A DNA stretch of 64,000 nucleotides from a virus. Its lineage: Duplodnaviria; Caudoviricetes. Below, one piece after another: positions 12,344 through 63,999 of the stretch (position 1 is the first letter of the stretch; every line of letters begins with the position of its first letter). The stretch covers positions 1,810 through 65,809 of IMG/VR virus record IMGVR_UViG_3300044971_003100, one strand, 5' to 3'. Under the pieces are notes generated by a model. It made no database searches. It was not told the origin of the DNA and saw only the letters and a program-made list of their open reading frames with translations. The position numbers and the translations under genes are program-made.

Positions 12344-13837
12344 CTAAGGATTTCGTGCCGGCGGTTCGGCTACCTGGGTTCGGTTATTGGCGGTTCTGAT
12401 TGGCGGCAAACTATCGCTACCGCCGCTTGATGCGGCCTCCTCTTTCGAGATTCTGTTCATTTCCTCTTTGATCTTCATGTCTGGATCTAAAATTCCACCA
12501 CGCTGCAGCTCCGCAAGTACTGTCTGACCGCTAAGCAGTTTCGAGTTATACAGATTAACAAGTTGAGCGATGCCACTTGGATCAATGGGTCGATTTATCA
12601 AGCTATCGTTAAGTGCTATGCCAGATTCCGCCGTCAGTTTTGCTAGCTCCCCAGCATAGACAGCCCACAGTCGCATAACAGTGTTAAAGGAACTGGTCTT
12701 ATTGCGCACCAGAGATGCAACCTGTGACGCTATCTGAGAAGCCCTTAGTGATGCTTCTGTTGCCGTCTTGATATTTGCTCCATACAGGAAATTGAGACCA
12801 GACCTGTCCATCAGGGCTTCCAGGTGCGTTACTTCCGCTTGATGGCGCTCAAGGCTGCGGCCAGTCGGCTCAGCAAAAGCGAATTCGCCGCCATCCGCTG
12901 GCAGGTCAACCGCAGTATTTGGCCCCAGGATCAGTGGTGCAGTGCGTCCGTCCGGGCCAACGGGGGCACCTTTTCTGACCGGCACCGGCATGGCGCATTT
13001 ATGCAGCAATTCCGTTAGGTCGGATCGCATTTGGTAGTGCTGAATGCTCAGTTCAGCAAGACCATTCATTGGTAAATCACCTTGAGCAAATCTGCTAGTT
13101 GATGCGCCATACCATATCAACGGAACAACAGGTAGTGTCGTTGGCACGGAGCTGACCAGTGTCTGTCTCCATTTGCCATCTTTCTTTTCCATCCTATATT
13201 CTTCTACAAGATTTGGCTTCAGTACATAGTAAACAGGCTCCAGCCTGACGCCAAACCCATCATCCATTGGCATCGACTTGATCTGGCGAATTGTTGCATG
13301 CTGGATAAATTCGCGTCCGCCATTATAAGCAACAGACCAATTTATGACATCTTTTCTTTCTATCAAAATCACATAAGGCCTGCGGCCATCACGCTGTTGA
13401 TCCAAGAAATTCGATGTTTGGTCCTGCTCCGGCATCATATCAACCATCACGAAGACACCACCGTCCCGGATGGCTAATTCGTCACAGCGATTCCAAAAAC
13501 TCTGGATACTGGATCCTTGCAGGTCGATATTGCTTTCCGAATTGCTAAGACTGGGGGGCGCATCAACAAGTTGAAAGCGATTCAGCAGGCCCGCATATGC
13601 TCGGATCGAATCTCTGAAAATAGGCGTATAAGTAGACCTGTGCAGTCTGGCCTCGTAGGCTTTCTTGGGCTCAGCCGGTTCCTGTACCAGATATTTAGGC
13701 TTAGCCGACCCCCTGCCGTTTGTATCCAACAAATTCCAACAATCTAGTGCCAGTTCCAGACCAGGCAGCAGATCAACCAGCTCTGGCCGGTGGTAGCTGA
13801 CCAGTCCTGGATTGTCAGTTGGATGTACGACCTTCAT
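12344..13837 (-). CDS. portal protein (DUF4055-type)
   Basis: 497 aa; YLVQEPAEPKKAYEARL, NIDLQG, RRPYVILI..DVINW, LAELSIQHYQMRSDL, KTATEA, LAELQRGGIL. Confidence 0.85.
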   Translation of the reverse strand: MKVVHPTDNPGLVSYHRPELVDLLPGLELALDCWNLLDTNGRGSAKPKYLVQEPAEPKKAYEARLHRSTYTPIFRDSIRAYAGLLNRFQLVDAPPSLSNSESNIDLQGSSIQSFWNRCDELAIRDGGVFVMVDMMPEQDQTSNFLDQQRDGRRPYVILIERKDVINWSVAYNGGREFIQHATIRQIKSMPMDDGFGVRLEPVYYVLKPNLVEEYRMEKKDGKWRQTLVSSVPTTLPVVPLIWYGASTSRFAQGDLPMNGLAELSIQHYQMRSDLTELLHKCAMPVPVRKGAPVGPDGRTAPLILGPNTAVDLPADGGEFAFAEPTGRSLERHQAEVTHLEALMDRSGLNFLYGANIKTATEASLRASQIASQVASLVRNKTSSFNTVMRLWAVYAGELAKLTAESGIALNDSLINRPIDPSGIAQLVNLYNSKLLSGQTVLAELQRGGILDPDMKIKEEMNRISKEEAASSGGSDSLPPIRTANNRTQVAEPPARNP

Positions 13838-13908
13838 GGGGCATCGCGCCTAAAGTTCTGCCGGCGTCTCGCCTTTGGCTCCCCTAGGGTTCCAGGAATA
13901 CTATGAAT

Positions 13909-14423
13909 TCAGGAAATAAATCCAAAAGCATTCACCTTAGAGGCGGTTACTTTGTTGTCGTTGTGATAATGCCCCTTTTGTGAGTACGGAATCCGGCAGG
14001 GCTGATCCGTTTTCATAAATCTGAGCTGTCCAATCAACATGTCTTTTACCAAATACAGGGTCGTATATCGATTCACGTTAACCAACTCCAGCGTCACTTT
14101 TCCAGAAAACCCTGGATCGATGTAACCAGCAAGAACATGCTCGTAACCTTCACGAGCCCTGGAGGATTTCAGTTGAAATACCGCCTCCATATCAGATGGA
14201 ATATTTACCCACTCTTCAGTGCAACCAAGAATAAATTCACCCGGCGCCAGTGAATATGGTAAAGACTCCTCAATCCAACCACCTTCTGGTTGCTCTACTA
14301 GAATCGTCTCGCCGAGCCTTACATCATAAGAGGCAGGGTTCAACTGGCTGGCGTGAAAGGGTTCGATTAACACTTCCCTCGAAAGGCACATGGACAGTAT
14401 TTGAGAATCAACGATTGTGGACA
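13909..14423 (-). CDS. dcd: dCTP deaminase
   Basis: QLNPASYDVRLG, KSSRAREG, AGYIDPGFSGKVTLEL, IGQLRF. Confidence 0.93.
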
Positions 14424-14689
14424 TTGTTGTACTGCTCTGGTGTAAGATAGAACCCGCTGCCAGTTTCTTTCTTTCTGGCGCGAGCAAGTGCATCCCAAGC
14501 GCTTTGTATAGTGTCCAAGCGGTTTGAGTTCTCCTTGAACTTAATCCAGGTGATGTTGTAATAGCTTTTGAACAGATCCTGGAATATGCTCAGCTTTTCT
14601 TGAACCTCTGGGCCATAGTGACTATGATCCAGAGGTTCTTCAGAAGAAGAGATCATCTGATGGGGCCGGATAGCCCAGTATAGCATCAC
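14408..14689 (-). CDS. hypothetical phage protein
   Basis: 93-aa ORF between nrdJ and dcd. Confidence 0.55.
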   Translation of the reverse strand: MMLYWAIRPHQMISSSEEPLDHSHYGPEVQEKLSIFQDLFKSYYNITWIKFKENSNRLDTIQSAWDALARARKKETGSGFYLTPEQYNNVHNR

Positions 14690-14701: not shown

Positions 14702-17700
14702 TCACTTGAGCAATCCAGCTTGATCAGAGTCTTTCTCTGATTCTGTTAAACACTTAGCTGAATCACAGCCAGCAGCACCTTTCAGTTCATAGTCCGCATT
14801 GTCGTATTTCTTCAATAGGTCAAGAAATGTAACATCTTCCGGCAGCATTGAGCGAACGATTTTCACCGTAGCCATGCGACGTTCGTACATCTGCTTGTCG
14901 ATTGGTTCAAACGGCAATCGTGGGAATGTTTCGTTTGCATCGAACCTGGCAAGCAGAGCAGCCGAAATGTATCCACCATCCGACTGGATTGACTGGTGGA
15001 CTAAATTAGCCAGTTGGTCTATTTCGTCTTGACGAAACTCCAGGGTTGCGGATGTGTTGTGCTGGGTGTATTCTTTTTGAACCTGCATATAGAGTCCCCA
15101 CTGAGCGCTAACTGGTAACTTGCTAAGGTCGAACTCATCGCAACCAGGTAAATTAGCCCACGATACTTCTGTGGGGATTTCAACCAACACTTCGCGAACC
15201 CTGGGATCGCTGATGTCATCAAGCAGGTTACCGTCTTCGTCCCTGGCGCTTTGTGCTGGAATTACGTTGTAGCCGTAATCACGCAATGCACTGACCAGTG
15301 GATCATTTACGCCAAAGGTAATCCGGCGGATGAAGCGCTGTGCCTTCGGCGGATGCCAGCCGCTGCTAGCGCCGGTCAACAGGCTCTTGGAGCCAGCAGG
15401 TTGCACTGTGGTGAACCTGTTTGGGACACGAATACCGTGCTGCTCGCAGTAGTCCCTGACACCCTGCTCGGCAGCAATCCTCCAGCCCCTGAGGAATTTC
15501 TTTTCCCTGGCATCGTACTTCTTGCACTCAGCACCACCAGGGCGACCTTTCATCATCCACTTCAGCCAAGGGGCACCAAAAGCATGCACAAAAAAGTCAA
15601 ACAGGCCAGTAAAACTGACGCCAACAATCGGATCGTTTTCACGGCTATAAGAAAGGCGCTCGGGGACAAATTTGTGTTGTAGCAGGGCCGCAACTTGCAG
15701 ACCACCGGCATAGAATGCCTGACGTTGCAGCTCTGAATCACTTGGATCGATAGTATTCAGATGGACCTCACTGAGGTTACATACGTTGTCACGCATAAGG
15801 ATTTCACCGCACTGTGCCACTAACAAAAGTGCCCCAAGGGTAAAGGCATGACTTCCGGGTACGGTGCAGCAGTACACTTCTGGCGCTGTGTACGCAAATT
15901 CAATGGAAGAGACAACATTGGATTTACTCTTTACAGAGTGGGAGGTCTCTCTGCCTGCAAAAGATTTAAGGCGTTCAAATCTTACCCGTCTAGCCAGAAT
16001 AATAGAGTTATATTGAGAAATAGCAAGCCGGTAGGTGTCTTTAACTTGACATACTCCCCCTTTGTCTGGACCAAAATCTTTGATGCCACCTTCGCGAACC
16101 GGACCGATTTTTGAATTGATGCCCATGGTGCGCAGTAAGGCCACTAGTCCACGCAAGAATGGCAAACTTACGCTGGTAAGTTGATAAGAAAAACCCTTTT
16201 TGCTATCCATCGCAGTGCCATCTGCATCGAATAATCCGGCTATAAACTCACCTTTCGCCTCGTCTGTCCAATTAAGCACCTCGTCGGGAAATGTGTGCTT
16301 ATATTTGTAACACCATTGATTCATGTCTTCGCAAGTAGAAGACAGTCCACGGATGTAACCAGCCCCGGTCAGCACTTCTAGATCATCAAATGCTCCAAGC
16401 TCAATGAGAGATGCACGTAATCGATCCGCGCAAACTTTTTTTGGTGCGTACACCTTACAGAAAGCGCCTTTCCCTTTATTTGACGTACCATCTCCGATCA
16501 GGAAGCCCTTCAGGTATGCGCCCTTTGCGTTTACTGAACCCTTGACCGGTTCAATCGTAGCAGCCAGTAGCTCATTGCCGGGCTTCAGGTCCTTCAGTTC
16601 TCTTCTGGTTCCATCTTTCAGGATAAACTTGTGGTATTCAGTAGCTGTAATAACTGTCCCATCATGCAATATTACATTGTAAACATCTTGATCATTAGCA
16701 GTAACCCGGAAATTGTCAATGACGCGCCACTCGTTCCCATCATGAATTTCAACAGTCTCGCCAACCAGTGATTCGATCGGGAAATAACCTTCCCTGGTCA
16801 TCACAATAGTGCCCGGAGCAAAGCACGGATTAAGCCCGTACCTATCCATCCGATGCTGAATGATGCGTTCATCGGTTGGTTCACCAGCTTTTTCCGCTAG
16901 TTCGGTCAGCATCTGACGTGCATCATCCTGACTGCGCACGTACAAAGCAAGGAACCGCTTCTTTAGTTGTTCTGTATTCAACAGGTCGGCATTTGCCCTG
17001 GCGATCGACTCTGGCACATACATGATGGCACCTTCGCCGGACCAAAACTGCTTTTCGATACTGGCCCTGATCGTTTTATGGTCAGGTTTCGCATGGAAGC
17101 ACAGGGTGTGATTGGCCATCCTGAGTGCTTCTTTTTCGGGATCTACGCTCCAGTTGCCGTTTTCATCCTGCTTATACAGGCCATCTTTGGCCGAAGCGGC
17201 CTCATTGTCGCAGGACGAAAATTGGCGCATGCCGGCGCTGCGGCGGATGTTGCCGGCCACTACTGCACTGGCTGCTTCATCAATCAGCAAGCAGCACTCA
17301 ATCGATGTCAGCTTGCGCCCCTTGGCCTTGCAGAGCACTTTTGCCGCCCGCTCAAACGTCTCCCGCAGCCGAACAGGGTTAGCAGTGCCACCAAAGCCCT
17401 TGAGGGGTTCACCCGCCTGGCGGACGTGACTCAGATCCAGCACTATTTCGGCATCGCAGTGGACTGTGTCCTCTTCCTCGTCTTGAGCCGGGTACCCCAT
17501 AGCTAGGGTAATTAAACCCTGGTAGGCACTAGCCCAGCCCTGACGGGAATCGCCAACCTTGATTGTGATGATTGGCTTTTCATCAACAATCCCAGTAAAC
17601 CTGATGGTTGTATCTGCATCGCCACCCTTGATTCCTTCGTTGTTCCTGATATTGCTAATAGAAACTTTTCTTTGAATTGGCGGCATGTTGTTTACAACGT

Positions 17701-18067
17701 CTTCCTCCATGACGGCGCCAGTGCCTGTTCCCATCATGGCCAGCTCCATCAGCAAGCCAAACATCGAGGGATCGTTTGCGTGCATCGAGCAGCAGTTGTA
17801 GTACCCAGGGAAGTTCTCTTGCTTCTTGGACCACTCCGTACCTGCAACCCACAACGCACGCCCGCTAGGGAAGCATTGCTGTCTCAGTCCAGCTTCAATA
17901 CATAGCGCCTTCTGCTCCTGAGTAAATTTACCTACCTCTGCGATGGCAGATATTGTACGCGTAATTGCCTCTTCAAAGTTTTCACGCGACCCGTCTGCCT
18001 TACGCCGGGAGTACGAACGATAGAAAACCGCAGGCCCAGAAGGAGCGAATTGACCGAATTCCGACAT
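14702..18067 (-). CDS. nrdJ: class II (B12-dependent) ribonucleotide reductase with intein
   Basis: PSGRALWVAGT, YNCC, DSRQGWA, VVAGNIRRSA, NP[intein]CGEI, CNLSEVHL, TTVQPAGSKSLL, C-terminal CDSAKC; likely start MSEFGQF. Confidence 0.93.
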   Translation of the reverse strand: MSEFGQFAPSGPAVFYRSYSRRKADGSRENFEEAITRTISAIAEVGKFTQEQKALCIEAGLRQQCFPSGRALWVAGTEWSKKQENFPGYYNCCSMHANDPSMFGLLMELAMMGTGTGAVMEEDVVNNMPPIQRKVSISNIRNNEGIKGGDADTTIRFTGIVDEKPIITIKVGDSRQGWASAYQGLITLAMGYPAQDEEEDTVHCDAEIVLDLSHVRQAGEPLKGFGGTANPVRLRETFERAAKVLCKAKGRKLTSIECCLLIDEAASAVVAGNIRRSAGMRQFSSCDNEAASAKDGLYKQDENGNWSVDPEKEALRMANHTLCFHAKPDHKTIRASIEKQFWSGEGAIMYVPESIARANADLLNTEQLKKRFLALYVRSQDDARQMLTELAEKAGEPTDERIIQHRMDRYGLNPCFAPGTIVMTREGYFPIESLVGETVEIHDGNEWRVIDNFRVTANDQDVYNVILHDGTVITATEYHKFILKDGTRRELKDLKPGNELLAATIEPVKGSVNAKGAYLKGFLIGDGTSNKGKGAFCKVYAPKKVCADRLRASLIELGAFDDLEVLTGAGYIRGLSSTCEDMNQWCYKYKHTFPDEVLNWTDEAKGEFIAGLFDADGTAMDSKKGFSYQLTSVSLPFLRGLVALLRTMGINSKIGPVREGGIKDFGPDKGGVCQVKDTYRLAISQYNSIILARRVRFERLKSFAGRETSHSVKSKSNVVSSIEFAYTAPEVYCCTVPGSHAFTLGALLLVAQCGEILMRDNVCNLSEVHLNTIDPSDSELQRQAFYAGGLQVAALLQHKFVPERLSYSRENDPIVGVSFTGLFDFFVHAFGAPWLKWMMKGRPGGAECKKYDAREKKFLRGWRIAAEQGVRDYCEQHGIRVPNRFTTVQPAGSKSLLTGASSGWHPPKAQRFIRRITFGVNDPLVSALRDYGYNVIPAQSARDEDGNLLDDISDPRVREVLVEIPTEVSWANLPGCDEFDLSKLPVSAQWGLYMQVQKEYTQHNTSATLEFRQDEIDQLANLVHQSIQSDGGYISAALLARFDANETFPRLPFEPIDKQMYERRMATVKIVRSMLPEDVTFLDLLKKYDNADYELKGAAGCDSAKCLTESEKDSDQAGLLK
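15812..16825 (-). mobile_element. intein (338 aa) with LAGLIDADG homing endonuclease
   Basis: Begins CFAPGTIVMT; block B ATEYHKF; LAGLIDADG motifs YLKGFLIGDG and FIAGLFDADG; block F VYCCTVPGSHAF; ends LLVAQ before extein Cys. Confidence 0.92.
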
Positions 18068-18138
18068 GATTGAAATTAAAGGGACTTTAGATTGCCGCAA
18101 GTGACGCGAAAATAGCCGTACTCAAGCCGTAAATCGAC

Positions 18139-20540: not shown

Positions 20541-21209
20541 TCAGTCTAGCCGGGTAACCGGGTCTGGTATTGATAATTTTTGTTGCCTCAGGCCACTGGT
20601 CATCGACGTGAACTGCCTGACCGGTGGCTTCGACAGGTCGCCCCTGCAGTAAGACGCCATAGAGTTGTAATCCTTGGTGGACAGCGCCTCAACCATTTCC
20701 CTCGCCTTCTCTCGATAGTCTATTTTGAAGTCCATCTCTTCTGGCTCCAGCGGATCCGTTGGCATCGCTTGATCTTTTAGCTCAAGCGGCGGACCAGAGC
20801 ATGCTGATCTGGTTTCCTGCCACTCTCCAAGCGATATACCTAGCTTTTCGGATATTGCTATGTCATTAGATCCATTGAATAGCAATCTGCGTCCTTTGAC
20901 CCAATTCTCCCGCATGCGATGTGACAAACGCATTGCATAAGTGCGATCCCTTACCCAGTGCAAGATTTCGCCTCTTATTGTTGGCGTTGCTAAGCTAGAA
21001 AATTTGTAGCCCGATTCCGGGTCATACCGATGGCATGCCTTACATAAACCAAGGAATGCAGCACCCTCCAAGACCGAATATTCGATGCCTGTCGTCCTCT
21101 GAACACGCCAAGCTTCCCTTCTTGCCAGGTTTATATTCTCCGCAGCCATTTCTTGCTGCTCTGGTGTTAACTGGAAGCTTTGCGGTTTCTTTGCCATAAC
21201 CTTAGTCAA
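20541..21209 (-). CDS. alternative sigma factor (SigF/SigB/FliA-like)
   Basis: ENINLAR, GLCKACHRYDPESGYKFSSLATPTIRGEILHWVRD (region 2 of SigB/F type). Confidence 0.85.
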   Translation of the reverse strand: MTKVMAKKPQSFQLTPEQQEMAAENINLARREAWRVQRTTGIEYSVLEGAAFLGLCKACHRYDPESGYKFSSLATPTIRGEILHWVRDRTYAMRLSHRMRENWVKGRRLLFNGSNDIAISEKLGISLGEWQETRSACSGPPLELKDQAMPTDPLEPEEMDFKIDYREKAREMVEALSTKDYNSMASYCRGDLSKPPVRQFTSMTSGLRQQKLSIPDPVTRLD

Positions 21210-22719
21210 TCCTGTACGGTGTTGCCGGTAAGGCAGTTCCTCTCCCCCAGCTTACCTCAGTCATAACAGGAACAGTGCGCTGTGACATGTAGTTAATAGC
21301 CATGCCAATTGAGTCTATTATGTCATCATTTTTTGCGGCAGGAAACAGGCTGAATTCGTTCATAAATACGTCCAGCCAGGTGGCACTTGCTGGCAAATAG
21401 ACATTACCAGCCTCTACTATTGGTACGATGCCAGCAGCACGAGCTACTTTTGATTTTTCTGGCTTGAAACCAATAAGGCCAGGTACTTTCTTTTGAAGTA
21501 ACTGATATGCAGCATATCCAGAAGCAGCTAGCTCGATAACCGTTCCGCTTAACGCGTGCTTTTTGTACATCCTTGATATCATGCTGATAGTACCAATAAT
21601 GTCCAACTTCTCTCTGACCATATCCAGTACGTAGAAACTGTTACCAGCTTGTCCTACGATACTGCCAACGACATAGTCACTGGAGCTTGTATTTGTAAAG
21701 GTACAGTCAACGCTAAGGATGACGCGCTGAAACTCAGGCAGTTCCTTAAGCTGGTCGTAATACTGCCACCAGCTCGGGTCAAACATGTTACCGCCCTCTG
21801 GCGCCGGTCTTTGCTGAAACAAGGCTGCGAAATCCCTTGTGCCAATTGCTTCGCGGATGCGCTCATATTCGTCGATTCCATATCGCTGTGGACATAATGC
21901 AAGGCCTGGCTCCTCTCGCCAATCAGTTATTATATTGCAGTGCTCCGGCAAAGGTGGCCTGGAGCCCGGATCCTCCGATATAGCGGGCAAATCAAGAATT
22001 GTCCAGCCCTCTCGACCTTTCTCGGATACATTCATCTCTGATTCGATCAATCGTCCGATCAGGTCATTTTGACTCCATCTCGTCTGAATAATGACAATCG
22101 AGCCGACATTTGGCTCAAGCCGTGTATACAGGGTTGACGTATACCAATCCCACAATTTTTCCATCACCCTGGGGCTGTCGGCATCTTCCCTGTTTTTGAC
22201 AGGGTCATCGACGATCAACAGGTGACCCGATCGACCAGTAATAGCACCGCCAACACCCGCTGCCCACAAACCACCACCGCCCTGTGTTCCCCAGTCGTTG
22301 ACAGCTTGCTTATACGGATCAAATGTGCCTCCAGCCTGCCTGTAGTAGTCCCGCGCTGACCTAGAGAAGCCCTCCGCAAGTTCAGCGCTATAGGATACTA
22401 GGCCGACATACCTATCTGGGTGGGCCAGTAGATAAGCAGCAGGAAACAACTTAGAGGACAGGTACGACTTTCCAATACGTGGCGGCACCTGTATGATAAG
22501 CCTCTTGCATTTTCCATCGATGATGGCTTGCAATTGTTTTGTCAGTTCTGCGTGTACTTTGTAGAACTTGTAATTGGGAGATACTGATTTTATGAATTGA
22601 TGCAGGACTATTTGCTGCCCGCCTTCTTTCTTTTGGGTTTTCACCCTTCTTAACTCGCGAACCATCTCGCGATCTGAGCCAGCTTTTTCTAGGAATTGTT
22701 TGCCAGCTCTGGTAGCCAT
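21202..22719 (-). CDS. terminase large subunit
   Basis: PPRIGKS Walker A, LLIVDDPVK Walker B, QTRWSQNDL, SVDCTF, KNDDIIDS nuclease. Confidence 0.95.
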   Translation of the reverse strand: MATRAGKQFLEKAGSDREMVRELRRVKTQKKEGGQQIVLHQFIKSVSPNYKFYKVHAELTKQLQAIIDGKCKRLIIQVPPRIGKSYLSSKLFPAAYLLAHPDRYVGLVSYSAELAEGFSRSARDYYRQAGGTFDPYKQAVNDWGTQGGGGLWAAGVGGAITGRSGHLLIVDDPVKNREDADSPRVMEKLWDWYTSTLYTRLEPNVGSIVIIQTRWSQNDLIGRLIESEMNVSEKGREGWTILDLPAISEDPGSRPPLPEHCNIITDWREEPGLALCPQRYGIDEYERIREAIGTRDFAALFQQRPAPEGGNMFDPSWWQYYDQLKELPEFQRVILSVDCTFTNTSSSDYVVGSIVGQAGNSFYVLDMVREKLDIIGTISMISRMYKKHALSGTVIELAASGYAAYQLLQKKVPGLIGFKPEKSKVARAAGIVPIVEAGNVYLPASATWLDVFMNEFSLFPAAKNDDIIDSIGMAINYMSQRTVPVMTEVSWGRGTALPATPYRID

Positions 22720-22950
22720 CTATTCCTTGGGAAGGTGCTCTTTCTTTATTCTATCGTATTCCTCTTCGCCAATCACATCTTTACAGCCATTCAGTATTGA
22801 ATCCAGGAAGTCCTTTTCGGTCCATGTATTGAAAACTGATGTAACTGGATGATTTTCGTCCCACTCAATTGTAATCGAGTCATCCTCGTTTACCGTAACA
22901 AAAAGAGGGAAGTCTTCACTCATCGATTGGGATTTCGTAGGCGTCGACAT
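22720..22950 (-). CDS. hypothetical phage protein
   Basis: ITIEWDENHP...WTEKDF; small acidic ORF. Confidence 0.6.
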   Translation of the reverse strand: MSTPTKSQSMSEDFPLFVTVNEDDSITIEWDENHPVTSVFNTWTEKDFLDSILNGCKDVIGEEEYDRIKKEHLPKE

Positions 22951-23554
22951 CGGTTACATCCTCAACATTTGCTTTGGTCATCTCGGAATCAACCATCTCA
23001 AGCATCTCATTGATGCCCAATGAGTTGGCCCAAGACTGGCGTGATTGCTCGCTTATGTTAGCAGCGGCACGCAACAAGCCCGAGACCAGTGCCATCGGCA
23101 CCTCTTCGCCTTCGTCTTCCGCCTTTGCGATGCGCTTGCCAAGCACGCGCAACAGGTCTTCTGAAACGCGTGCCATCATCCTGGCTTGGCGTTCGGATGA
23201 CTCCCTGAATTCTACGATTGCTTCCCTGTGGGTATTTTTCTGAAACTTCTCAGCTTCTTTCCATACAATAGCGAGTTGATCCTTGTCATAAGCCGCAGCA
23301 CGGCGTTGCCAGTTGTAAGTTGAAGCCCATCTTGATAAAGATGGAGCGCAATGGCCGGTTACAGTTTCCAGGTCAGAGAATGCCCTGGTACCTTGAAGCA
23401 ACAGGAATTTCTGAAAGCAATTGAATTGGTCAGCACTTTCGTGGCGGCCAGCATCCTTGACACGATAGCCACGCCGAAACCCATAAATAGGGCCAGCGTC
23501 ACCTTTTATTGGCTTAGATTCTGGCCAGTCGGACACTGGTTCTTTTTCATTCAT
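22916..23554 (-). CDS. putative terminase small subunit
   Basis: HTH-like LSRWASTYNWQRRAAAYD followed by a helical region; lies upstream of the large subunit. Confidence 0.6.
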   Translation of the reverse strand: MNEKEPVSDWPESKPIKGDAGPIYGFRRGYRVKDAGRHESADQFNCFQKFLLLQGTRAFSDLETVTGHCAPSLSRWASTYNWQRRAAAYDKDQLAIVWKEAEKFQKNTHREAIVEFRESSERQARMMARVSEDLLRVLGKRIAKAEDEGEEVPMALVSGLLRAAANISEQSRQSWANSLGINEMLEMVDSEMTKANVEDVTDVDAYEIPIDE

Positions 23555-23583: not shown

Positions 23584-24360
23584 TTACGGTGAAAGCCTGG
23601 CCTTGTGCAAGCGTTTCGCTTCATAATAACCCCACACAGATGGGGCCCAATCCCTCAGGATTGGTATAAACTGCTCACATAGTGCCTCGATCTCCAGTTG
23701 TGCATCTAACTTGGATCTGAGATCCATGAAATGCAACACGGACCTCAGGTTAAATGATACAACAAAGTTTTGCCTGATGCCTTGAGGCAGGTAATCGCGA
23801 ATGTGCTCTTCGGAGCAGCCATTTTTGTAATCTTTGGCGTAATCCTCGCAGGCAAGAATTATTTTGCCTCTTTTATCTTCAATGTTTTCTTTGGTCCACT
23901 CATACTTCTTGCCCTGTCGGTTTGTGTAAAGACCAGGCGGCCTGATGTAGAAGACGTCTTCCACATCAATTTCGCGGTCAGCGACCTTCAGGACACGCTT
24001 GCCGGTGTACCGCTGAGATTGAACATCCCACGAAGTGCCGATTCGATGCGTGCGTGCTTGCACTATGACATTGTGCACATAACCGGCACAAGACAGTGTT
24101 ATCTGTGGGTGTTCCAGTGGGCCGTAGTGCCCCTTTTCGCCCGACAGCAAGTGGTCGACAATCCACTTACCAGCCTCTTCTCGTTTCAGGGGCTTGACCT
24201 CGTGGATGGGAACTTCGGAGTAATCATTCTTACCAGCCTGCCAGATCACCCTTTCGGGGTCGGCGTAGCAGTCCAGAACTTTTACCGTCAGCCTTTCGTC
24301 CAGGCCAAGAAGATCAGAGGCGCGAACTGGTCTGATGGTTTTTTCTGTGGCCATGATCAC
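23584..24360 (-). CDS. thyX: FAD-dependent thymidylate synthase
   Basis: GHYGPLEH, QARTHR...VQSQRY, NLRSVLHFMDLR, AQLEI. Confidence 0.95.
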   Translation of the reverse strand: MIMATEKTIRPVRASDLLGLDERLTVKVLDCYADPERVIWQAGKNDYSEVPIHEVKPLKREEAGKWIVDHLLSGEKGHYGPLEHPQITLSCAGYVHNVIVQARTHRIGTSWDVQSQRYTGKRVLKVADREIDVEDVFYIRPPGLYTNRQGKKYEWTKENIEDKRGKIILACEDYAKDYKNGCSEEHIRDYLPQGIRQNFVVSFNLRSVLHFMDLRSKLDAQLEIEALCEQFIPILRDWAPSVWGYYEAKRLHKARLSP

Positions 24361-27403: not shown

Positions 27404-28201
27404 CTATACCGCAGTGGCAATCAGCCTGAGTTTCTCAAGGGCAGTTTCACGCAAAGCAGCAACCTTTCCCCTGGAGATCGAATTGGCGTGCATTATGTCT
27501 TTAACTTTCATCTCATCTATAAACAGGCTTTCCAGTACCTTGACCTGATCGTCACTTAGCCCTGCCGCCTGGATCAGGTCATCCATTTCACACGAAAAAC
27601 GAGCCGTGCTTTCGGTGCTGGGCGGATACTTACTTTCTAGGCACTCAATGATCGAAATATCGCCATCTTCGCCTATTGGTGTATCGACAGAGATTACCGC
27701 TTGAGCGGAGCGCACAAGTCTTGTTAACGCTTCGCCCGCTTCGTGGCTTTTGTTTTTAACGAATCCGTACTTTTCAAAGGAATAGGCATCACGACAGGCG
27801 TTTTCCGGTATATGAAATATACTAGACGCCTTGATCGCGTAACGACCGACAAAAGACCTGATCCAGTAGGTTGCGTATGTGGCAAAAGTATAACCAGTTT
27901 CTGGGTCATACTTTTCTGCAGCCCTTATCAGGCCGAGCGCTCCTGTTTGCAGCAGATCGAGTGTCTCCGGGCCTCCCCATCCTTTCTTCATCTTGCCGTC
28001 CATGTACAAATGGACCGACCTGATAACCAGTCTCAAGTTATGAGACACCAACTTGTTCACATAGAACTTATACTTTGGGCTCCCGACCTCGTGTGACTTA
28101 ATCTTCTTTGCGATGATCAGCATTTCTTCTTTACTCAAGACCGGCTTACTGCCTGCGGCGTTCATCCAGGCAGTAATTTCGTTGCTCAAGCTTTTCGACA
28201 T
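27404..28201 (-). CDS. sigma-70 (RpoD/RpoS-like) factor
   Basis: LVSHNLRLV, DLLQTGALGLIRAAEKYDPETGYTFATYATYWIR, ISVDTPIGED, region 4 ALEKLR. Confidence 0.92.
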   Translation of the reverse strand: MSKSLSNEITAWMNAAGSKPVLSKEEMLIIAKKIKSHEVGSPKYKFYVNKLVSHNLRLVIRSVHLYMDGKMKKGWGGPETLDLLQTGALGLIRAAEKYDPETGYTFATYATYWIRSFVGRYAIKASSIFHIPENACRDAYSFEKYGFVKNKSHEAGEALTRLVRSAQAVISVDTPIGEDGDISIIECLESKYPPSTESTARFSCEMDDLIQAAGLSDDQVKVLESLFIDEMKVKDIMHANSISRGKVAALRETALEKLRLIATAV

Positions 28202-33313: not shown

Positions 33314-34449
33314 TGTCTTTTGTTCTCGCTTAAATCCCAATACCAGCCGTCAGAACTGTTGCTGATTAGCCAGCGCTTCATCAAGTTCTTGCGGGTATAT
33401 TTCTGTTGCTTGCCATCGGTTGGTCCAGCCAGTGGATATCCACCATTGATCAAATCTAGTTCACCGAATGGATCGTTTACATAGAAGTATTGGTCGTCAT
33501 AAGCAGTAACAGTAACCCAATGTCCGCCACCAGTTGGATCTGTGATCGATCCTTTGTGCAATATTCCGATCGGAACTGGATAACCTGAATCCAGGATACG
33601 AATAAGGTCCTTTTCTGAGCCGTTCATGCGGAAGCTGTGTTTCAGCCCAAGGTTGTCTAGTGCCTTTTGATGTGCTGACTGGGATACCGTGTCGCCATAC
33701 CTAAGCACAAGCCGCAGGTAATTGTCGTCATCAGTGATTAACTTTGGATTCAAGTACTTGATCACCATTGCAATAGCTGACGACTGGCACGACCTTTCAC
33801 CATGTCCAGTTTTGCTGTCGCGCTGATAGAAATATGGAACATTGGCTGGTTGCTTTTTACCGTCAATCGGCTTCTGGGTGACTGATGTCTGCCGGAACTC
33901 CTTAGCAAAAGCGAGCAATTGCTCCTTCGTTAGCGTTGCTTGCAGGTTCTGCCATGCCTTCCTTTGATGCGGCAGGCCCGTATCCCACTTGGCAGCCTCC
34001 GACAGGGAAATCGTCTGACTAGATTGCGTGGGAGCTTCCACGGGGGCGCTATTCTTGTTGATTATTTCGATCAACTTGTTTGCATACTTGGGATCAGTGG
34101 CATAGCCTTCGGATGCAAGCATCTTTGCAGCGCCCTTGAGGTCTTCTGCATTATTCACGCCTTTGTAGCCACGGAAATCTTTGTACCACCTGTCCACTAA
34201 GTATTTGATCGCCTCTGATAGATCATCAAAATCAGCAAACTCATCAACTAGCTTGATTTCTTTGTTATCGATAAATTCGGTGGTCTCGACAGACTGACCC
34301 TTGCCCTTTAGCCCAAATGGATTATTCTTGCCACTCATGGTTTTGCCCCAATTGCTTTCCAGGGCCCACTGAGCCGCAACAAGTTCGGGGTATTTAGCGC
34401 CAGCTATACCAGCAAGTCTAGCAACTTCACCCCAGGTTGTGTAAGTCAT
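33310..34449 (-). CDS. endolysin: glucosaminidase (GH73) plus peptidase C39-like domain
   Basis: AQWALESNWG, NNPFGLK, GYATDPKY; C-terminal VPYFYQRD, CQSS, GGHW, VNDPFG. Confidence 0.88.
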   Translation of the reverse strand: MTYTTWGEVARLAGIAGAKYPELVAAQWALESNWGKTMSGKNNPFGLKGKGQSVETTEFIDNKEIKLVDEFADFDDLSEAIKYLVDRWYKDFRGYKGVNNAEDLKGAAKMLASEGYATDPKYANKLIEIINKNSAPVEAPTQSSQTISLSEAAKWDTGLPHQRKAWQNLQATLTKEQLLAFAKEFRQTSVTQKPIDGKKQPANVPYFYQRDSKTGHGERSCQSSAIAMVIKYLNPKLITDDDNYLRLVLRYGDTVSQSAHQKALDNLGLKHSFRMNGSEKDLIRILDSGYPVPIGILHKGSITDPTGGGHWVTVTAYDDQYFYVNDPFGELDLINGGYPLAGPTDGKQQKYTRKNLMKRWLISNSSDGWYWDLSENKRQ

Positions 34450-34477
34450 GCTTAACTATCTTGCGGGATAGTTTACC

Positions 34478-34774
34478 TTAAATCCTGTTGATTATGGATG
34501 CCTTTGGCGGCAGGTCTTTTTGTTCAAATCTCATGTGGAAGCCGCTGCTGATTATATTTATCAGTATCGGTACAAGTGTACTTATGACGACTGCCGCACC
34601 CATTGCCCACGCCATGCGGTTTTCTACTTTCGTCAGCCTTTCGAATGCAGTTTGCAGGTCGTTACGGTATTCAGTTGTCCTGGTAATCAGCGCATCTAGC
34701 TTACCCTCAAGCGTTCCCAGTTTGTGATATATCTCAATATGAGATACCGATGGTTCCTGAGGGTTCATTGCCAT
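34478..34774 (-). CDS. coiled-coil plus transmembrane lysis-module protein
   Basis: IYHKLGTLEGKLD...RMAWAMGAAVVISTLVPILI. Confidence 0.65.
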   Translation of the reverse strand: MAMNPQEPSVSHIEIYHKLGTLEGKLDALITRTTEYRNDLQTAFERLTKVENRMAWAMGAAVVISTLVPILINIISSGFHMRFEQKDLPPKASIINRI

Positions 34775-36545: not shown

Positions 36546-36896
36546 TCAGCCGACGTTGTCCACGGCGTCGATGTAGCAGGCAACCAGGGTTGCGGTGCCA
36601 CCGAGATCGTAGTCAACGTTGTTGTTAGCGTCGCACAGCGAACCACGGATATGGGCGATGCCAACGCCGTTGACATCCAGGTCGTTGGCGTTGAAAACAA
36701 CAGACTCACCACCCACGTTGACGGTGATCTTGTTGGTACCACCATTGTCAATGCCACCGGCACCGATAACCACCACGCGAATAGTTTTGATGGTCTTCAG
36801 GTCGAGACCTGCGGCGGTCGGGGTGGCGGTCACTGCCATGGCAGCATCCAGGTCAAACTTCTCGCGGGGAAAAACACCAGTAGAACGTTGAGCCAT
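36546..36896 (-). CDS. putative capsid decoration/cement protein, copy 1
   Basis: Beta-rich 116 aa; paralog of 36987..37346; strong terminator downstream. The function is inferred. Confidence 0.6.
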   Translation of the reverse strand: MAQRSTGVFPREKFDLDAAMAVTATPTAAGLDLKTIKTIRVVVIGAGGIDNGGTNKITVNVGGESVVFNANDLDVNGVGIAHIRGSLCDANNNVDYDLGGTATLVACYIDAVDNVG

Positions 36897-36986
36897 GATA
36901 ATCTCCTAGAAAGAAAGAAAGGGAATGAAGGTAAACAGAATCCGCCTCGTGGAGTAGTGACGCGATTCCTAATTTAGAGTACCTAT

Positions 36987-37346
36987 TCAGCCGACGTTGT
37001 CGACAGCATCCAGGTAAACCGCCTCTGCGGAAGCTCCGTTGTAATAGTCCCACGATGTTCCGTTTTGGCCATCTTCGATGCTGGACCCACGAACGTGAGC
37101 AATTCCGACACCATTGGCGTCGATGTCTTCACCATAAAAGACCGTTTGCTTGCCGCCAGTGCTGACGCGGATGTAGCCGCCTTCACCGCCTTCTCCAAGA
37201 CCGTCTGCCCCGAGGACAATAATCCTCCAGGTGTTAACGCTGTTCAGGGGGATCGGCGACTGCGTGGTGTTATCCCACTGCACTTCCATTGCGGAATCCA
37301 GGTCAAACTTTTCCCTGGGGAAGACACCGGTAGAGCGTTGAGCCAT
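36987..37346 (-). CDS. putative capsid decoration/cement protein, copy 2
   Basis: Same N-terminus MAQRSTGVFPREKFDLD and C-terminus DAVDNVG as copy 1. Confidence 0.6.
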   Translation of the reverse strand: MAQRSTGVFPREKFDLDSAMEVQWDNTTQSPIPLNSVNTWRIIVLGADGLGEGGEGGYIRVSTGGKQTVFYGEDIDANGVGIAHVRGSSIEDGQNGTSWDYYNGASAEAVYLDAVDNVG

Positions 37347-37439
37347 GATAATTTCCTAGAATAGAACAAAATCCGCCCCGTGGAGTAGTGGCGCGATTCC
37401 TGTTATATGCTTCCTATTTGAACAGCGCGTAAGGCGTTG

Positions 37440-48128: not shown

Positions 48129-48153
48129 AAAAAAAAGGGGCCCTGCGGCCCCC
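48129..48153 (-). terminator. intrinsic terminator after the major capsid gene
   Basis: GGGGCC-gcag-GGCCCC followed by T8. Confidence 0.85.
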
Positions 48154-48169: not shown

Positions 48170-49072
48170 TCAGGACGCAAGCGAGGCAGTAGCGTCCACG
48201 TTGGCGAGACGGGCAGCGGCCCTACCATTGATTAAAGCAAGTCCGCAATACCATTCAACGCGAGTAACCAGAGTGGGCGAATCGGTCGCTTCACCAAGGT
48301 CACGCACCTGAGGGCCGCCGTTCTGCAGACCGGTCAGCAGATCGTTGCCGAAGGCCACCACGTAGATGGACTGATCGCTGGTGTCGCTATCCAGGATAGC
48401 AACGTTCTGGTGGTCGCGATCCAGTTCAAGCACCGGAATGCCACCGTAGAACAGTTGCTGATAGCCGAAGTCGTTGCGCTCGATGTCGATCTGACCGTTG
48501 GCGCGAGCCACCTTGCTCAGATGACGACGAGCGGACTTGGACATCACAAGGTACTTGGTGCCACCTTGTGCATCCACTGCGTCAATAGCTTCGTCCAGGG
48601 CGCCGGTGTCCAGAGCAGCGGGGGAAACGCCGTTGGCGATATACTGGCTGGAGCCAGCGGGCAGGCGGTTTGCCAGGCCATCGAACTCAGCGCCACTGGC
48701 GTTGGAGTCACCGTTGATGAACAGGCCTTCGAAGGCCAGGCGCATTGCGCGGGTCTTGGCTTGCACCTGATAGGCGCGAGCCTCGGGGCCCTCCAGGTCG
48801 ACGATAGCGCGGTCAACCTTGATGTCACCACCGAACAGCTTCAGCGCTTCGCTGTGCTGCTTGACGGTGGCATAGCTTTCGGTATAACCAGCGTTAAACG
48901 TACGGAAACCCACGTCGCCGAGGGACTCCTCACGCTTCCAGAACAGACCGTTGCCCTGAACTTCACGGAACGGCAGGTTTTGCAGCAGGGGACCAGCAGC
49001 AAGCTCGGTGATAATCGCGAGTTCCTGCGGGTTAGTAGAATGCTTCTTGGCTTCAGCAAGAGTTAATGCCAT
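48170..49072 (-). CDS. major capsid protein
   Basis: MALTLAEAKK, GGDIKVDR, FINGD...EFDGL, RVEWYCGLA; follows the scaffold gene and has a strong terminator. Confidence 0.88.
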   Translation of the reverse strand: MALTLAEAKKHSTNPQELAIITELAAGPLLQNLPFREVQGNGLFWKREESLGDVGFRTFNAGYTESYATVKQHSEALKLFGGDIKVDRAIVDLEGPEARAYQVQAKTRAMRLAFEGLFINGDSNASGAEFDGLANRLPAGSSQYIANGVSPAALDTGALDEAIDAVDAQGGTKYLVMSKSARRHLSKVARANGQIDIERNDFGYQQLFYGGIPVLELDRDHQNVAILDSDTSDQSIYVVAFGNDLLTGLQNGGPQVRDLGEATDSPTLVTRVEWYCGLALINGRAAARLANVDATASLAS

Positions 49073-49213
49073 GATTCCTATGGGGGTAGATGAACGTAAA
49101 CAGGAAAGGTAAATCGCTACATGAATGTCTCATCCATTAGCGCTAGACCCTCCCCGATAGGTCATCACAACCAACTCAGGGCTGGGTACTCAAACTTATG
49201 ATACCTAAAAATT

Positions 49214-49239
49214 AAAAAAGGGCCAGCAAAAGCTGACCC
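49214..49239 (-). terminator. intrinsic terminator after the scaffold gene
   Basis: GGGTCAGC-tttt-GCTGGCCC followed by T6. Confidence 0.75.
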
Positions 49240-49261
49240 ATTGTGTATATTTAGGCTTGAA

Positions 49262-49999
49262 TCAGCCAAATGCCTTCAGGAACAGCTCATCACTGCTAAG
49301 CGCACTCAGGTCTTCACTGGTCATGCCATTCATGTCAGTGCCGCCGTAGCCGATACCAGCACCAGACCCCTTGGAGCCCTTGAAGAAGGTGCCATAGATT
49401 GGATGCGTTTTGAATCCACCCAGGTAGTCTTCAGGGTTGATGCGACGGCCGGACTCCTTGTCCAGGATCGGTACACCGTTGGAATCAACAACAGTAATAC
49501 TGTTGTCGGGCTCCAGGCGGAAGTGGCCACCGATTTGATTGGCCAACATGTCAAAAAATGACACGCCATCTGCCGAATCGGTGCGACCGCCAGCGGAGAA
49601 GAATACCTTCTCCAGTGAATAACGCTTACGGAACTCCAGCAGTTCCTTGTAGGCACCATCTCGCTGCTGGACAGCTTCCGCTGCCTGCTTGCCGTACTTT
49701 TCCTCCAGCAATGCCGTGCGCTCATCGGCCGCAGCCTTTTCACGCGCAGCGATAGCTGCTTCCTCCTGCAGTTTGCGGTATTCGTCTGGGTTGATTTGCG
49801 CAAACTTCTCCAGTTGGGCGCTTTTCTCTTTTACCTCTTTCTCGTAGATCTTGCGCGTTTCACGTTCGGATTTCAGCGCCTTCAGCAGGTTCTGAACTTC
49901 TTCTTCGGAATAACTGCGATCATCTGCGGCTTCCGTCGCTTTCTGCTCTTCCGTGTTATCTACACTCGTCTCAAGTGCATTGTTGTTGTCTTCGGGCAT
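49262..49999 (-). CDS. capsid scaffolding protein
   Basis: Acidic N-terminus, coiled coil LKALKSERE, GSGAG linker; directly upstream of the major capsid gene. Confidence 0.8.
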   Translation of the reverse strand: MPEDNNNALETSVDNTEEQKATEAADDRSYSEEEVQNLLKALKSERETRKIYEKEVKEKSAQLEKFAQINPDEYRKLQEEAAIAAREKAAADERTALLEEKYGKQAAEAVQQRDGAYKELLEFRKRYSLEKVFFSAGGRTDSADGVSFFDMLANQIGGHFRLEPDNSITVVDSNGVPILDKESGRRINPEDYLGGFKTHPIYGTFFKGSKGSGAGIGYGGTDMNGMTSEDLSALSSDELFLKAFG

Positions 50000-50393
50000 T
50001 GTTACCAGGCATCACGCCATTTAGTGCCCGCTAGTATGCCAAGAACTAGAACCTTTTAGCGATTTCTGCCGCTGTTTTTTTATTCAGTTGCTGTTGGTTG
50101 AATATATACCTGTTTACCTTTGTTTGCAATTGACTTTGGGTCAACAGATTAATTTTTTGGTAATCGTTTGGCAGTGGCATACTGAACTCCAGCTATTATC
50201 AGTCTCTATATTATTCCTTGCATGATTAAGGTGTTGATGGCACCTGACGTAGTAGAGTTTCTGTCGTGAAGCATTTTGCTGGTGGGTCTAATTTCCTGGC
50301 AAATATCAACCAGATCAAGCGAGGCGCCTTATCCTGTTAAATGTAAGAATTGATCCGTGCTTGTGCTTGGATTCAATGGGCCTGTCGCTAGGC

Positions 50394-63652: not shown

Positions 63653-63999
63653 TTTTTTTCGATCTTCTCGATATTAACTGCCTCATCAGCTTTCTTGTCA
63701 GCAGTATCCTCGGAATCACCCAGTAACCGTGTAATTGATTTCATTTCTTCTTCACGGTATAATTCCGCCAGTGCGCTGATAATATCAGGATGCACCTCCA
63801 TGATGTCTGCTGTTTCAAAATCACGGTTGACGCGATGCGTGATCAGACACGCCGCCATCACCAATTCTTCCCTTGATTTCGAAATTGCAATCTCTTTGAT
63901 TACATCCTGTACCTGGGTGCTGTAATCTTTCGTAATGTTACCAATGATTTCCGTTTCCCGTACACCTTCTCGCACCTGATTCGTGATTGATGCTATCAA
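63628..63999 (-). CDS. tail assembly chaperone (G-like), 5' truncated by the window edge
   Basis: Ends IEKKRKVTRAN with the A AAA AAG heptamer at 63652-63658. Confidence 0.7.
   Translation of the reverse strand: MIASITNQVREGVRETEIIGNITKDYSTQVQDVIKEIAISKSREELVMAACLITHRVNRDFETADIMEVHPDIISALAELYREEEMKSITRLLGDSEDTADKKADEAVNIEKIEKKRKVTRAN

Follow-up and report, generated by a model that had tools for sequence, protein, structure and literature searches.

We identified, in an S-CBS2/P-SS2-like cyanosiphovirus, a small sense-strand RNA hairpin with a fixed loop that is conserved in related phages, covaries in its stems, occurs in pairs and is restricted to head-assembly genes. Judged by sequence comparison, which supports it well, the motif appears to be a new one of a familiar kind, namely a cis-acting RNA hairpin in phage messages.

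Gene content and layout

The DNA analysed (the window) comprises 64,000 bases of a virus record that is 65,809 bases long. At the DNA level its portal region shares 65-72% identity with the Synechococcus siphoviruses S-CBS2 and S-CRES1-3, and its capsid protein belongs to the tailed-phage major head family (PHROG, Pfam). PHROG and Pfam scans placed the following genes:

12344..13837, minus strand: portal gene (phrog_145, E = 1.1e-84; DUF4055), with its ATG at 13837
13909-14493, minus strand: dCTP deaminase
14702-18100, minus strand: intein-bearing ribonucleotide reductase (RNR)
20541-21209 and 27404-28201, minus strand: two sigma-factor genes
21202-22719, minus strand: TerL
22916-23554, minus strand: TerS
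48170..49072, minus strand: major head protein gene (phrog_212, E = 7.1e-75)
49262..49999, minus strand: scaffolding protein gene (phrog_206, E = 6.7e-26)

On this map the portal gene is displaced, as the initial annotation had claimed, lying about 35 kb from the scaffold and capsid genes and among genes of nucleotide metabolism. The gene order of S-CBS2 is likewise RNR, dCTP deaminase, portal.

Two hairpins precede the portal gene

Direct inspection of the sequence located both of the minus-strand hairpins that had been proposed between a promoter-like motif and the portal ATG:

13885..13895, minus strand: promoter-like motif CTGGAACCCTA before the portal leader, of the class GG-N-A-N3-TA and conserved in portal loci
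13873-13863 (core) and 13860..13879 (extended form), minus strand: portal hairpin 1, GGC-GAGAC-GCC
13840..13850, minus strand: portal hairpin 2, GGC-GCGAT-GCC, with 2 nt between it and the portal ATG

Both hairpins lie downstream of CTGGAACCCTA (13895-13885), in the 71 nt that separate the dCTP-deaminase stop (13909) from the portal ATG (13837). The stem of hairpin 1 can be lengthened by a GCC...GGC pairing over an AAA bulge (-7.4 kcal/mol, z = -1.88), and hairpin 2 by itself reaches -3.5 kcal/mol. Each of these 3-bp hairpins is weak when taken singly. The whole portal leader folds no better than shuffled sequences (z = -0.66), so thermodynamics alone gives the portal hairpins no support, and the minimum-energy fold of the leader pairs differently and includes neither of them. 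No T-run follows either hairpin and neither was listed in a terminator scan, which argues that they are not intrinsic terminators or attenuators.

We compared 14 portal loci on viral contigs (portals 65-100% identical), 13 of which had upstream sequence. Both hairpins were present in 10 of these 13, nine by a strict rule and one (L012) as a variant with a G-U outer pair in hairpin 1 and the loop ATGAC in hairpin 2, while L007, L010 and L013 had a single different hairpin instead (GGYCG-N8-9-CGRCC). None of the four fragmentary records behind L013, L010, L011 and L004 contained a capsid gene match. Across the ten aligned leaders, 14 of the 16 invariant columns lie inside the two hairpins and the spacers vary; all 60 cells pair, with the outer pair of hairpin 1 being G-C in six sequences, A-U in two and G-U in two. 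Hairpin 2 is nearly invariant in the relatives, S-CBS2 and S-CRES2. The alignment is almost devoid of covariation (two double-change cells, a value as high in 70 of 500 shuffles), and by itself the portal set demonstrates conservation, not covariation.

The cultured phages S-CBS2 and S-CRES2 have the same two-hairpin arrangement at their portal genes, in S-CRES2 directly after an intrinsic terminator. A third copy, GCA-GYGAY-TGC, abuts the portal ATG in S-CBS2, S-CRES2 and L012.

Covarying hairpins at the scaffold and capsid genes

The same pair of loops had been claimed to recur at the scaffold and capsid genes about 35 kb away. We found it there, in the scaffold leader and the start of the scaffold coding region and again in the capsid leader:

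50008..50018, minus strand: scaffold hairpin 1, GGC-GTGAT-GCC, 8 nt before the ATG
49961..49979, minus strand: scaffold hairpin 2, TGCACTT-GAGAC-GAGTGTA, within the coding region (+21..+39), its loop on Glu-Thr codons
49103..49187, minus strand: structured capsid leader, with ACCC, hairpin A, GGGT, hairpin B and ACCTTTCC in that order
49187-49184, minus strand: ACCC of the capsid leader
49172-49160, minus strand: capsid hairpin A, GGTT-GTGAT-GACC
49150-49147, minus strand: GGGT of the capsid leader
49137-49121 (core), minus strand: capsid hairpin B, ATGGAT-GAGAC-ATTCAT, long and irregular with a GAGAC cap
49110-49103, minus strand: capsid-leader block ACCTTTCC

For the scaffold gene, a scan that required a promoter-like motif, a hairpin and an ATG yielded 50 distinct leaders; loci outside this set duplicated another exactly, were cut short or had a more distant scaffold gene, and six further scaffold leaders were seen beyond the 50. 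The presence of hairpin 1 in these leaders follows from their selection, but its covariation does not. In alignment A1, 98.6% of 217 cells pair, compared to 42-59% in slid controls, and 62 cells change on both sides versus 20.5 ± 5.0 in shuffles (0 of 500 as high), although shuffle controls overstate significance here because the sequences are related. The closing pair of hairpin 1 is C-G in 25 leaders, A-U in 18, G-C in 4 and U-A in 3.

Scaffold hairpin 2 occurs in 40 of the 50 distinct relatives, at +20..+40 and with its loop on Glu-Thr or Glu-Met codons, such that the scaffold AUG is flanked by two hairpin copies. In alignment A4, 83.3% of its cells pair, versus 65.2% in shuffled and 38-43% in slid controls, and 86 cells are double changes versus 34.9 in shuffles, with the flanking codons shifting while the stem is kept.

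The capsid leader folds to a minimum energy of -43.3 kcal/mol (z = -2.43). Its relatives were drawn from the best 80 of 168 loci (capsids 73-99% identical), 68 of which were distinct, and an 85-nt structured leader was found in all 56 distinct aligned 150-nt upstream regions. The order of elements is the same across relatives (ACCC, hairpin A, GGGU, hairpin B, (C)ACCUUUCC), with the same loop on both hairpins. Pairing holds in 97.6% of the cells of hairpin A and 99.4% of those of hairpin B, and all six pairs change on both sides. At least two hairpins lie within -200..-20 of the capsid gene in 65 of the 67 distinct loci with 200 nt upstream, and the other two loci have one; at the scaffold start, at least one hairpin is present in all 59 loci with enough sequence and at least two in 53. 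On the proposed check for conservation, the hairpins are thus kept in related phages, with covarying stems at the scaffold and capsid genes and as conserved sequence at the portal gene.

The pattern extends to P-SS2 (capsid 53% identical), in which the scaffold pair and both capsid hairpins are present. Caulobacter phage phiCbK (capsid 36% identical) has no such hairpins in its capsid or upstream-gene leaders, which sets a limit on the family. One 341-nt metatranscriptome contig (run X1, 0.08 word share) covers 48826-49167, and this contig could be DNA carry-over.

The capsid leader also bears on the distinctly unlikely reading that these hairpins are processing or sensing elements, acting either as endoribonuclease cleavage or entry sites or, in the capsid leader, as a ligand or factor switch in which the loops would be tertiary-contact caps. 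Two mutually exclusive helices are open to the invariant GGGU, one with the ACCC upstream of it (99.6% of cells) and one with a downstream (C)ACC(Y) (85.7%); the 3' block UUUCC could pair with the SD-like AGGAA, and the phage already uses a glutamine riboswitch. However, neither alternative helix varies and so neither has covariation support, and the isolated portal and scaffold hairpins are too small for ligand sensing.

A shared promoter-like motif and separate terminators

Promoter-like motifs and terminator-like sites delimit the scaffold and capsid genes:

50032..50040, minus strand: promoter-like motif GGCATACTA before the scaffold leader, nearly invariant in the 50 scaffold leaders
49220..49239, minus strand: terminator-like hairpin and T-run after the scaffold gene (terminator scan)
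49197..49205, minus strand: promoter-like motif GGTATCATA upstream of the capsid leader, immediately following the scaffold terminator
48136..48153, minus strand: terminator-like hairpin and T-run after the capsid gene (terminator scan)

The scaffold and capsid genes look monocistronic because each ends at its own terminator-like site. The class GG-N-A-N3-TA precedes the portal, scaffold and capsid genes as GGAACCCTA, GGCATACTA and GGTATCATA, respectively, and also stands before several other late genes that have no hairpin. It is found directly 3' of terminators at the capsid gene here and at the portal gene in S-CRES2.

One of the two phage sigma genes adjoins TerL, as in P-SS2, whose TerL-adjacent sigma factor is described in the genome paper as group 3 and "likely" specific for a regulon (PMC2784084). 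The -12 element of SigF, a cyanobacterial group 3 sigma factor, is given as GGTAA (PMC2532724). By analogy, the motif may be a -10/-12 element for a phage sigma factor, with transcription starting a few bases after the TA, which we offer as a lead only. Readings of the motif as a sigma-54-type promoter, an extended -10 element or HIP1 (GCGATCGC) were dropped on inspection by eye.

A loop tighter than stability requires

We tallied 229 distinct loops from six hairpin classes. The loop is G-H-G-A-Y in about 94-99% of cases: G stands at position 1 in 228 loops and at position 3 in 225, and A at position 4 in 224, while position 2 is U in 113, A in 101, C in 15 and G in none, and position 5 is U in 142, C in 73, G in 11 and A in 3. 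Three of the departures from this consensus reflect a local misalignment. The GNGAY consensus proposed from this single genome therefore holds across the 229 loops, except that the last base is not strictly a pyrimidine, being G or A in 14 of them. G1 and Y5 could pair to leave an N-G-A triloop, as both RNAfold and RNAalifold draw it; this pair lies beyond a covariation test because G1 never varies.

These frequencies weigh on an explanation that needs no specific reader, in which the hairpins are passive RNA architecture that blocks 5'-end-dependent decay and keeps the AUG open, with the loop conserved as a stable GNRA-like or pseudo-triloop cap. Consistent with this idea, a promoter-like motif and a separate terminator enclose the scaffold gene and likewise the capsid gene; G-N-G-A fits the GNRA pattern, and in the RNAfold structures G1 pairs with C5. 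Should the motif's GG sit near -12, as in SigF promoters (PMC2532724), the hairpins would also lie some 5-25 nt from the 5' end of the message. However, a GNRA loop selected for stability would also use A at position 3, which is almost always G, and G never stands at position 2; stability by itself would allow a looser consensus. Passive architecture also fits poorly with hairpins that are paired at three functionally linked genes, that are missing from other late genes with the same promoter-like motif, and that include one copy maintained inside a coding region through covarying codons. Overall, we regard it as unlikely.

Placement and strand bias

Using a general class (stem of at least 3 bp with G-U allowed, loop G[ACT]GA[CT]), we scanned the whole window for enrichment at head genes, as the initial annotation had suggested. 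Six of the 33 matches are paired at exactly the portal, scaffold and capsid genes, and 11 of the 33 lie within -130..+70 of the start of a sense-strand ORF. Under random placement of 33 matches, only 0.126 genes are expected to have at least two within -130..+70 of their start, and three or more such paired genes arose with P = 0.0002 (0.02% of 20,000 trials), in a placement test that is post hoc for genes chosen beforehand by that annotation, the independent evidence being that from relatives. The exact word GGCGNGAYGCC occurs three times, versus 0.25 ± 0.56 in 100 dinucleotide shuffles (none of which reached three), and all three copies are on the minus strand, two before the portal gene and one 8 nt before the scaffold ATG.

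In the relatives (68 distinct loci, 453 kb), a scan for stems of at least 4 bp with a GNGAY loop returned 243 sense and 27 antisense hairpins, a roughly ninefold bias. Of the sense matches, 86 fell at scaffold starts and 111 in capsid leaders; the remainder were mostly further leaders of scaffold genes, a coding site conserved within a single lineage, and isolated matches. Across these 453 kb the hairpins are thus not equally frequent at non-head genes but concentrated at scaffold and capsid starts.

The complete S-CBS2 genome has 27 matches on the plus strand and 10 on the minus strand, and those near gene starts precede the portal gene, terS, the capsid gene (in its leader) and the gene before it. 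The last of these genes, which is annotated otherwise than as a scaffold, has a hairpin 9 nt from its ATG, and terS has GGA-GTGAT-TCC 5 nt before its ATG. In the window, no G-H-G-A-Y hairpin lies within -130..+70 of the TerS start (23554); the only candidate is AAGC-GAAAC-GCTT, upstream of the TerS promoter-like motif.

Could the repeats be palindromes that arose by chance, or an operator in the DNA to which a dimeric protein binds? GGC-N5-GCC is a palindrome in DNA, and the general class is not over-represented genome-wide (33 observed versus 31.4 ± 5.3 in shuffles). However, G-U pairs are frequent in the stems (capsid hairpin A, for instance, has 19 + 19) and become A-C mismatches on the other strand, so that the hairpin structure exists on the sense strand only, that is, in RNA. 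The strand asymmetry of 243 to 27 points the same way, as does an asymmetric loop that is conserved between freely varying stems. The G-U pairs and strand bias exclude a DNA-level site in practice, and we consider this reading, chance included, highly improbable.

We therefore define the head-gene class by a stem of at least 3 bp capped by G-H-G-A-Y, located on the sense strand, paired, at the start of a head gene and after GG-N-A-N3-TA. The portal copies have every one of these features, as do those of the scaffold and capsid genes.

A candidate translational operator of procapsid genes

We infer that the hairpins are present in mRNA, where they are bound by a factor and act on translation. 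More specifically, their most likely role is that of a common post-transcriptional operator of the procapsid genes, working at the level of translation and with one reader for the paired hairpins, a proposal to which we would give an even chance of being right. The portal hairpins would be copies of a small RNA module, a short G+C-rich stem with a G-H-G-A-Y cap, that stands twice at the 5' end of each of the portal, scaffold and major-capsid messages. Each message would begin at its own GG-N-A-N3-TA, possibly read by a phage sigma factor, and the module would act after transcription, at translation initiation. At the portal and scaffold genes it would occupy the place of the Shine-Dalgarno sequence, with the scaffold copies flanking the AUG. 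A shared reader (in the simplest case an RNA-binding protein, from phage or host, that is dimeric or has two sites) would set the output of the procapsid genes together despite their separation by 35 kb.

Two observations led us to place the action at translation. An SD-like 4-mer is absent from the last 18 nt of all 50 scaffold and all 10 portal leaders, where a hairpin sits in its place, but is present in 35 of the 56 capsid leaders; and the scaffold copies flank the AUG, one of them being kept in the coding region at a cost in codon choice. The case for a common reader comes from a loop that is tighter than stability needs and from the paired layout, which suggests a two-site protein. At the capsid gene the hairpins are 50-100 nt from the AUG, too far for simple occlusion to apply. 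No RNA-binding regulator emerged from Pfam and PHROG scans (94 and 59+18 ORFs, respectively).

A covariance model of the scaffold leader (R1), run over the window with filters off, scored its own scaffold leader at 42 bits but the portal hairpin at only 6.2 bits (E = 3), and at the lysin gene it matched through the promoter part only (E = 0.058). The information content of the hairpin alone is too low for this model to tie the leaders together, and their assignment to the same family rests on loop consensus, pairing and position instead of model score. The earlier proposal of a shared RNA operator linking the portal gene to the other head genes is accordingly upheld as regards a shared element, in the form of conserved, sense-biased hairpins, while "operator" is unproven and the scaffold model does not significantly detect the portal leader.

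A more specific possibility, which we consider quite unlikely, is that the paired loops are address tags of an assembly-feedback circuit, bound by an unassembled procapsid component or a dedicated two-site reader that throttles or co-localises head-protein translation. The tagged messages would be those for portal, scaffold and capsid and, in some relatives, the small terminase. If true, a dsDNA phage would possess an RNA regulon that serves to make procapsid assembly stoichiometric and possibly co-translational.

A further idea, that the loop stands in for a Shine-Dalgarno sequence (GUGAU being complementary to AUCAC at the 16S 3' end), was rejected, given that 116 of 229 loops have A or C at position 2 and 73 have C at position 5.

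Comparison with known RNA elements

In the nut sites of lambda and P22, boxB hairpins are read by N protein and have an A-rich pentaloop that ends in A. The hairpins described here likewise have short stems, a GNRA-like pentaloop and a promoter-proximal position, and several copies tie separate units to one factor in boxB systems. They could accordingly be signals for transcription elongation, at which a phage N-like factor on the nascent hairpins modifies RNA polymerase. The loop fits poorly, however, being G-H-G-A-Y with G at position 3 and A at position 5 in only 3 of 229, and the copies stand at late head genes, where they abut or flank start codons. In addition, each of the scaffold and capsid units starts at a promoter-like motif and ends at a terminator-like site of its own, which leaves nothing internal to read through, and no N-like Pfam family was found among 94 ORFs (E <= 1e-3), a search in which small arginine-rich proteins are easily missed. 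Given the differing loop and each unit's own motif and terminator, antitermination of the boxB kind is less likely, and we judge it improbable.

The coat-protein operator of MS2 and PP7, which a dimer of the capsid protein binds, is a single hairpin that contains the replicase start and a bulged purine, and T4 encodes autogenous translational repressors. These systems share with ours a small hairpin at the ribosome-binding region, through which a phage protein could link synthesis to the state of assembly. In contrast to MS2 and PP7, the present host of the element is a dsDNA tailed phage, with paired hairpins of a different loop on three messages; the AUG lies outside the hairpins (by 2 nt at the portal gene and 8 nt at the scaffold gene), and the core stems have no bulge. 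As Wyckoff and Casjens are said to have found in 1985, the scaffolding protein gene of P22 is autoregulated, providing a precedent for an unassembled head protein that feeds back on head-gene expression after transcription. To our knowledge no RNA target has been defined for P22, whereas here an RNA element is defined and no protein.

ANTAR targets consist of two tandem hairpins with hexaloops carrying A1 and G4, and are bound by a dimeric RNA-binding regulator. Our element resembles them in having two small tandem hairpins with conserved loop positions, but its loops are pentaloops with G1, G3 and A4, there is no overlapping terminator, and Pfam revealed no ANTAR domain among 94 phage ORFs. 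Hairpins of the CsrA/RsmA type carry GGA in the loop, which does not occur here since position 2 is G in 0 of 229 loops.

Rfam 15 contained no family matching the three leaders at the gathering threshold in a search of the whole window, and permissive scans of 48900-50200 and 13780-13960 gave only chance-level matches far below gathering. A literature search found no description of a G-H-G-A-Y head-gene motif, and neither "hairpin" nor "stem-loop" appears in the available part of the P-SS2 genome paper (PMC2784084). A survey of structured RNAs in viruses reported 10,006 candidates, five of them upstream of a major-capsid family (PMC10690425); the capsid leader described here could be among these candidates, although no such motif, loop or head-gene regulon is named in the portion of the survey's text available to us.

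Relevance to head assembly and to metagenomic contigs

The amounts of portal, scaffold and capsid protein that tailed phages need differ widely yet stand in fixed ratios to one another. How these ratios are controlled is largely unexplained for head genes that are scattered and separately transcribed, and the element marks exactly those messages. It is compact, easily mutated and distributed across a wide range of marine and freshwater cyanosiphoviruses, including the cultured P-SS2, S-CBS2 and S-CRES phages, which makes it directly testable. The element also provides a sequence signature by which genes for head assembly can be found in cyanophage contigs from metagenomes and their correct start codons assigned; in S-CBS2, for instance, the annotated portal start runs through the leader.

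Promoter-like motif and sigma factors

A promoter-like motif, GG[ACT]A-N3-TA, recurs 5' of many late and structural genes on the minus strand of the window. Among the starts that carry it, G-H-G-A-Y hairpins (short RNA stems with a fixed pentaloop) follow the motif only at the three head genes, encoding portal, scaffold and capsid. The lysin leader (34447-34483) was matched by R1, a covariance model built from scaffold leaders of relatives, through the motif alone (E = 0.058).

Motif sites and sigma-factor genes
About 10-45 nt upstream of starts 13837 (portal), 49999 (scaffold), 49072 (capsid), 47132, 47995, 52669, 61600, 62136, 41374, 34449 and 35258, minus strand: GG[ACT]A-N3-TA motif sites
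20541-21209, minus strand: phage sigma-factor gene 1 (phrog_36098, E = 4e-75)
27404-28201, minus strand: phage sigma-factor gene 2 (phrog_351, E = 5e-29)

Both sigma-factor genes have a Sigma70_r2 domain match. The first adjoins the large terminase gene (TerL), a placement shared with the group 3 sigma of the related cultured cyanophage P-SS2, and its product is a candidate for the factor that recognizes GG-N-A-N3-TA.

Other hairpins and leader elements

ORFs 6799-7203 and 6406-6642 are separated by a stretch that contains, at 6723-6745 (minus strand), a strong 9-bp hairpin whose loop, GTGAT, is of the head-gene type; this hairpin is present in one copy, lacks a T-run and lies away from the head genes. 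Upstream of the promoter-like motif GGTACAATA of the small terminase gene (TerS) is AAGC-GAAAC-GCTT, a hairpin with a GNRA-type pentaloop (23610-23622, minus strand), whose loop differs from that of the head genes at position 3.

The leaders of two adjacent small ORFs (36546-36896 and 36987-37346) have in common a block of ~40 nt that starts with AGGAATCGCG and contains an internal inverted repeat. This block is a second repeated leader element, distinct from the head-gene hairpins.

Repeated block and other RNA elements
About 36900-36985 and 37350-37430, minus strand: leaders with the AGGAATCGCG block
6073-6137, minus strand: glutamine riboswitch aptamer (RF01739, 51.3 bits; gathering score, 35)
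2263-2336, plus strand: tRNA gene (Rfam, 63.8 bits)
3656-3728, plus strand: tRNA gene (Rfam, 50.8 bits)
3752-3825, plus strand: tRNA gene (Rfam, 43.8 bits)

A 58-aa ORF (5875-6051) lies downstream of the riboswitch aptamer.

Portal start in S-CBS2

In the related cultured cyanophage S-CBS2, alignment with other portals points to an ATG ~70 nt downstream of the annotated start of the portal CDS, and the CDS as annotated reads through the leader hairpins (leader stretch, S-CBS2 record 66329-66401, or 2273-2345 of portal locus L096); the annotated start is probably placed too far upstream. The word that forms portal hairpin 2, GGCGCGATGCC, also occurs unchanged at 63863-63873 (plus strand) of the same record, within the ribonucleotide reductase coding region; this occurrence may be due to chance. 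An intein that contains a LAGLIDADG domain splits the ribonucleotide reductase gene of the window (14702-18100, minus strand), with matches to Intein_splicing and LAGLIDADG_3 at residues about 461-755.
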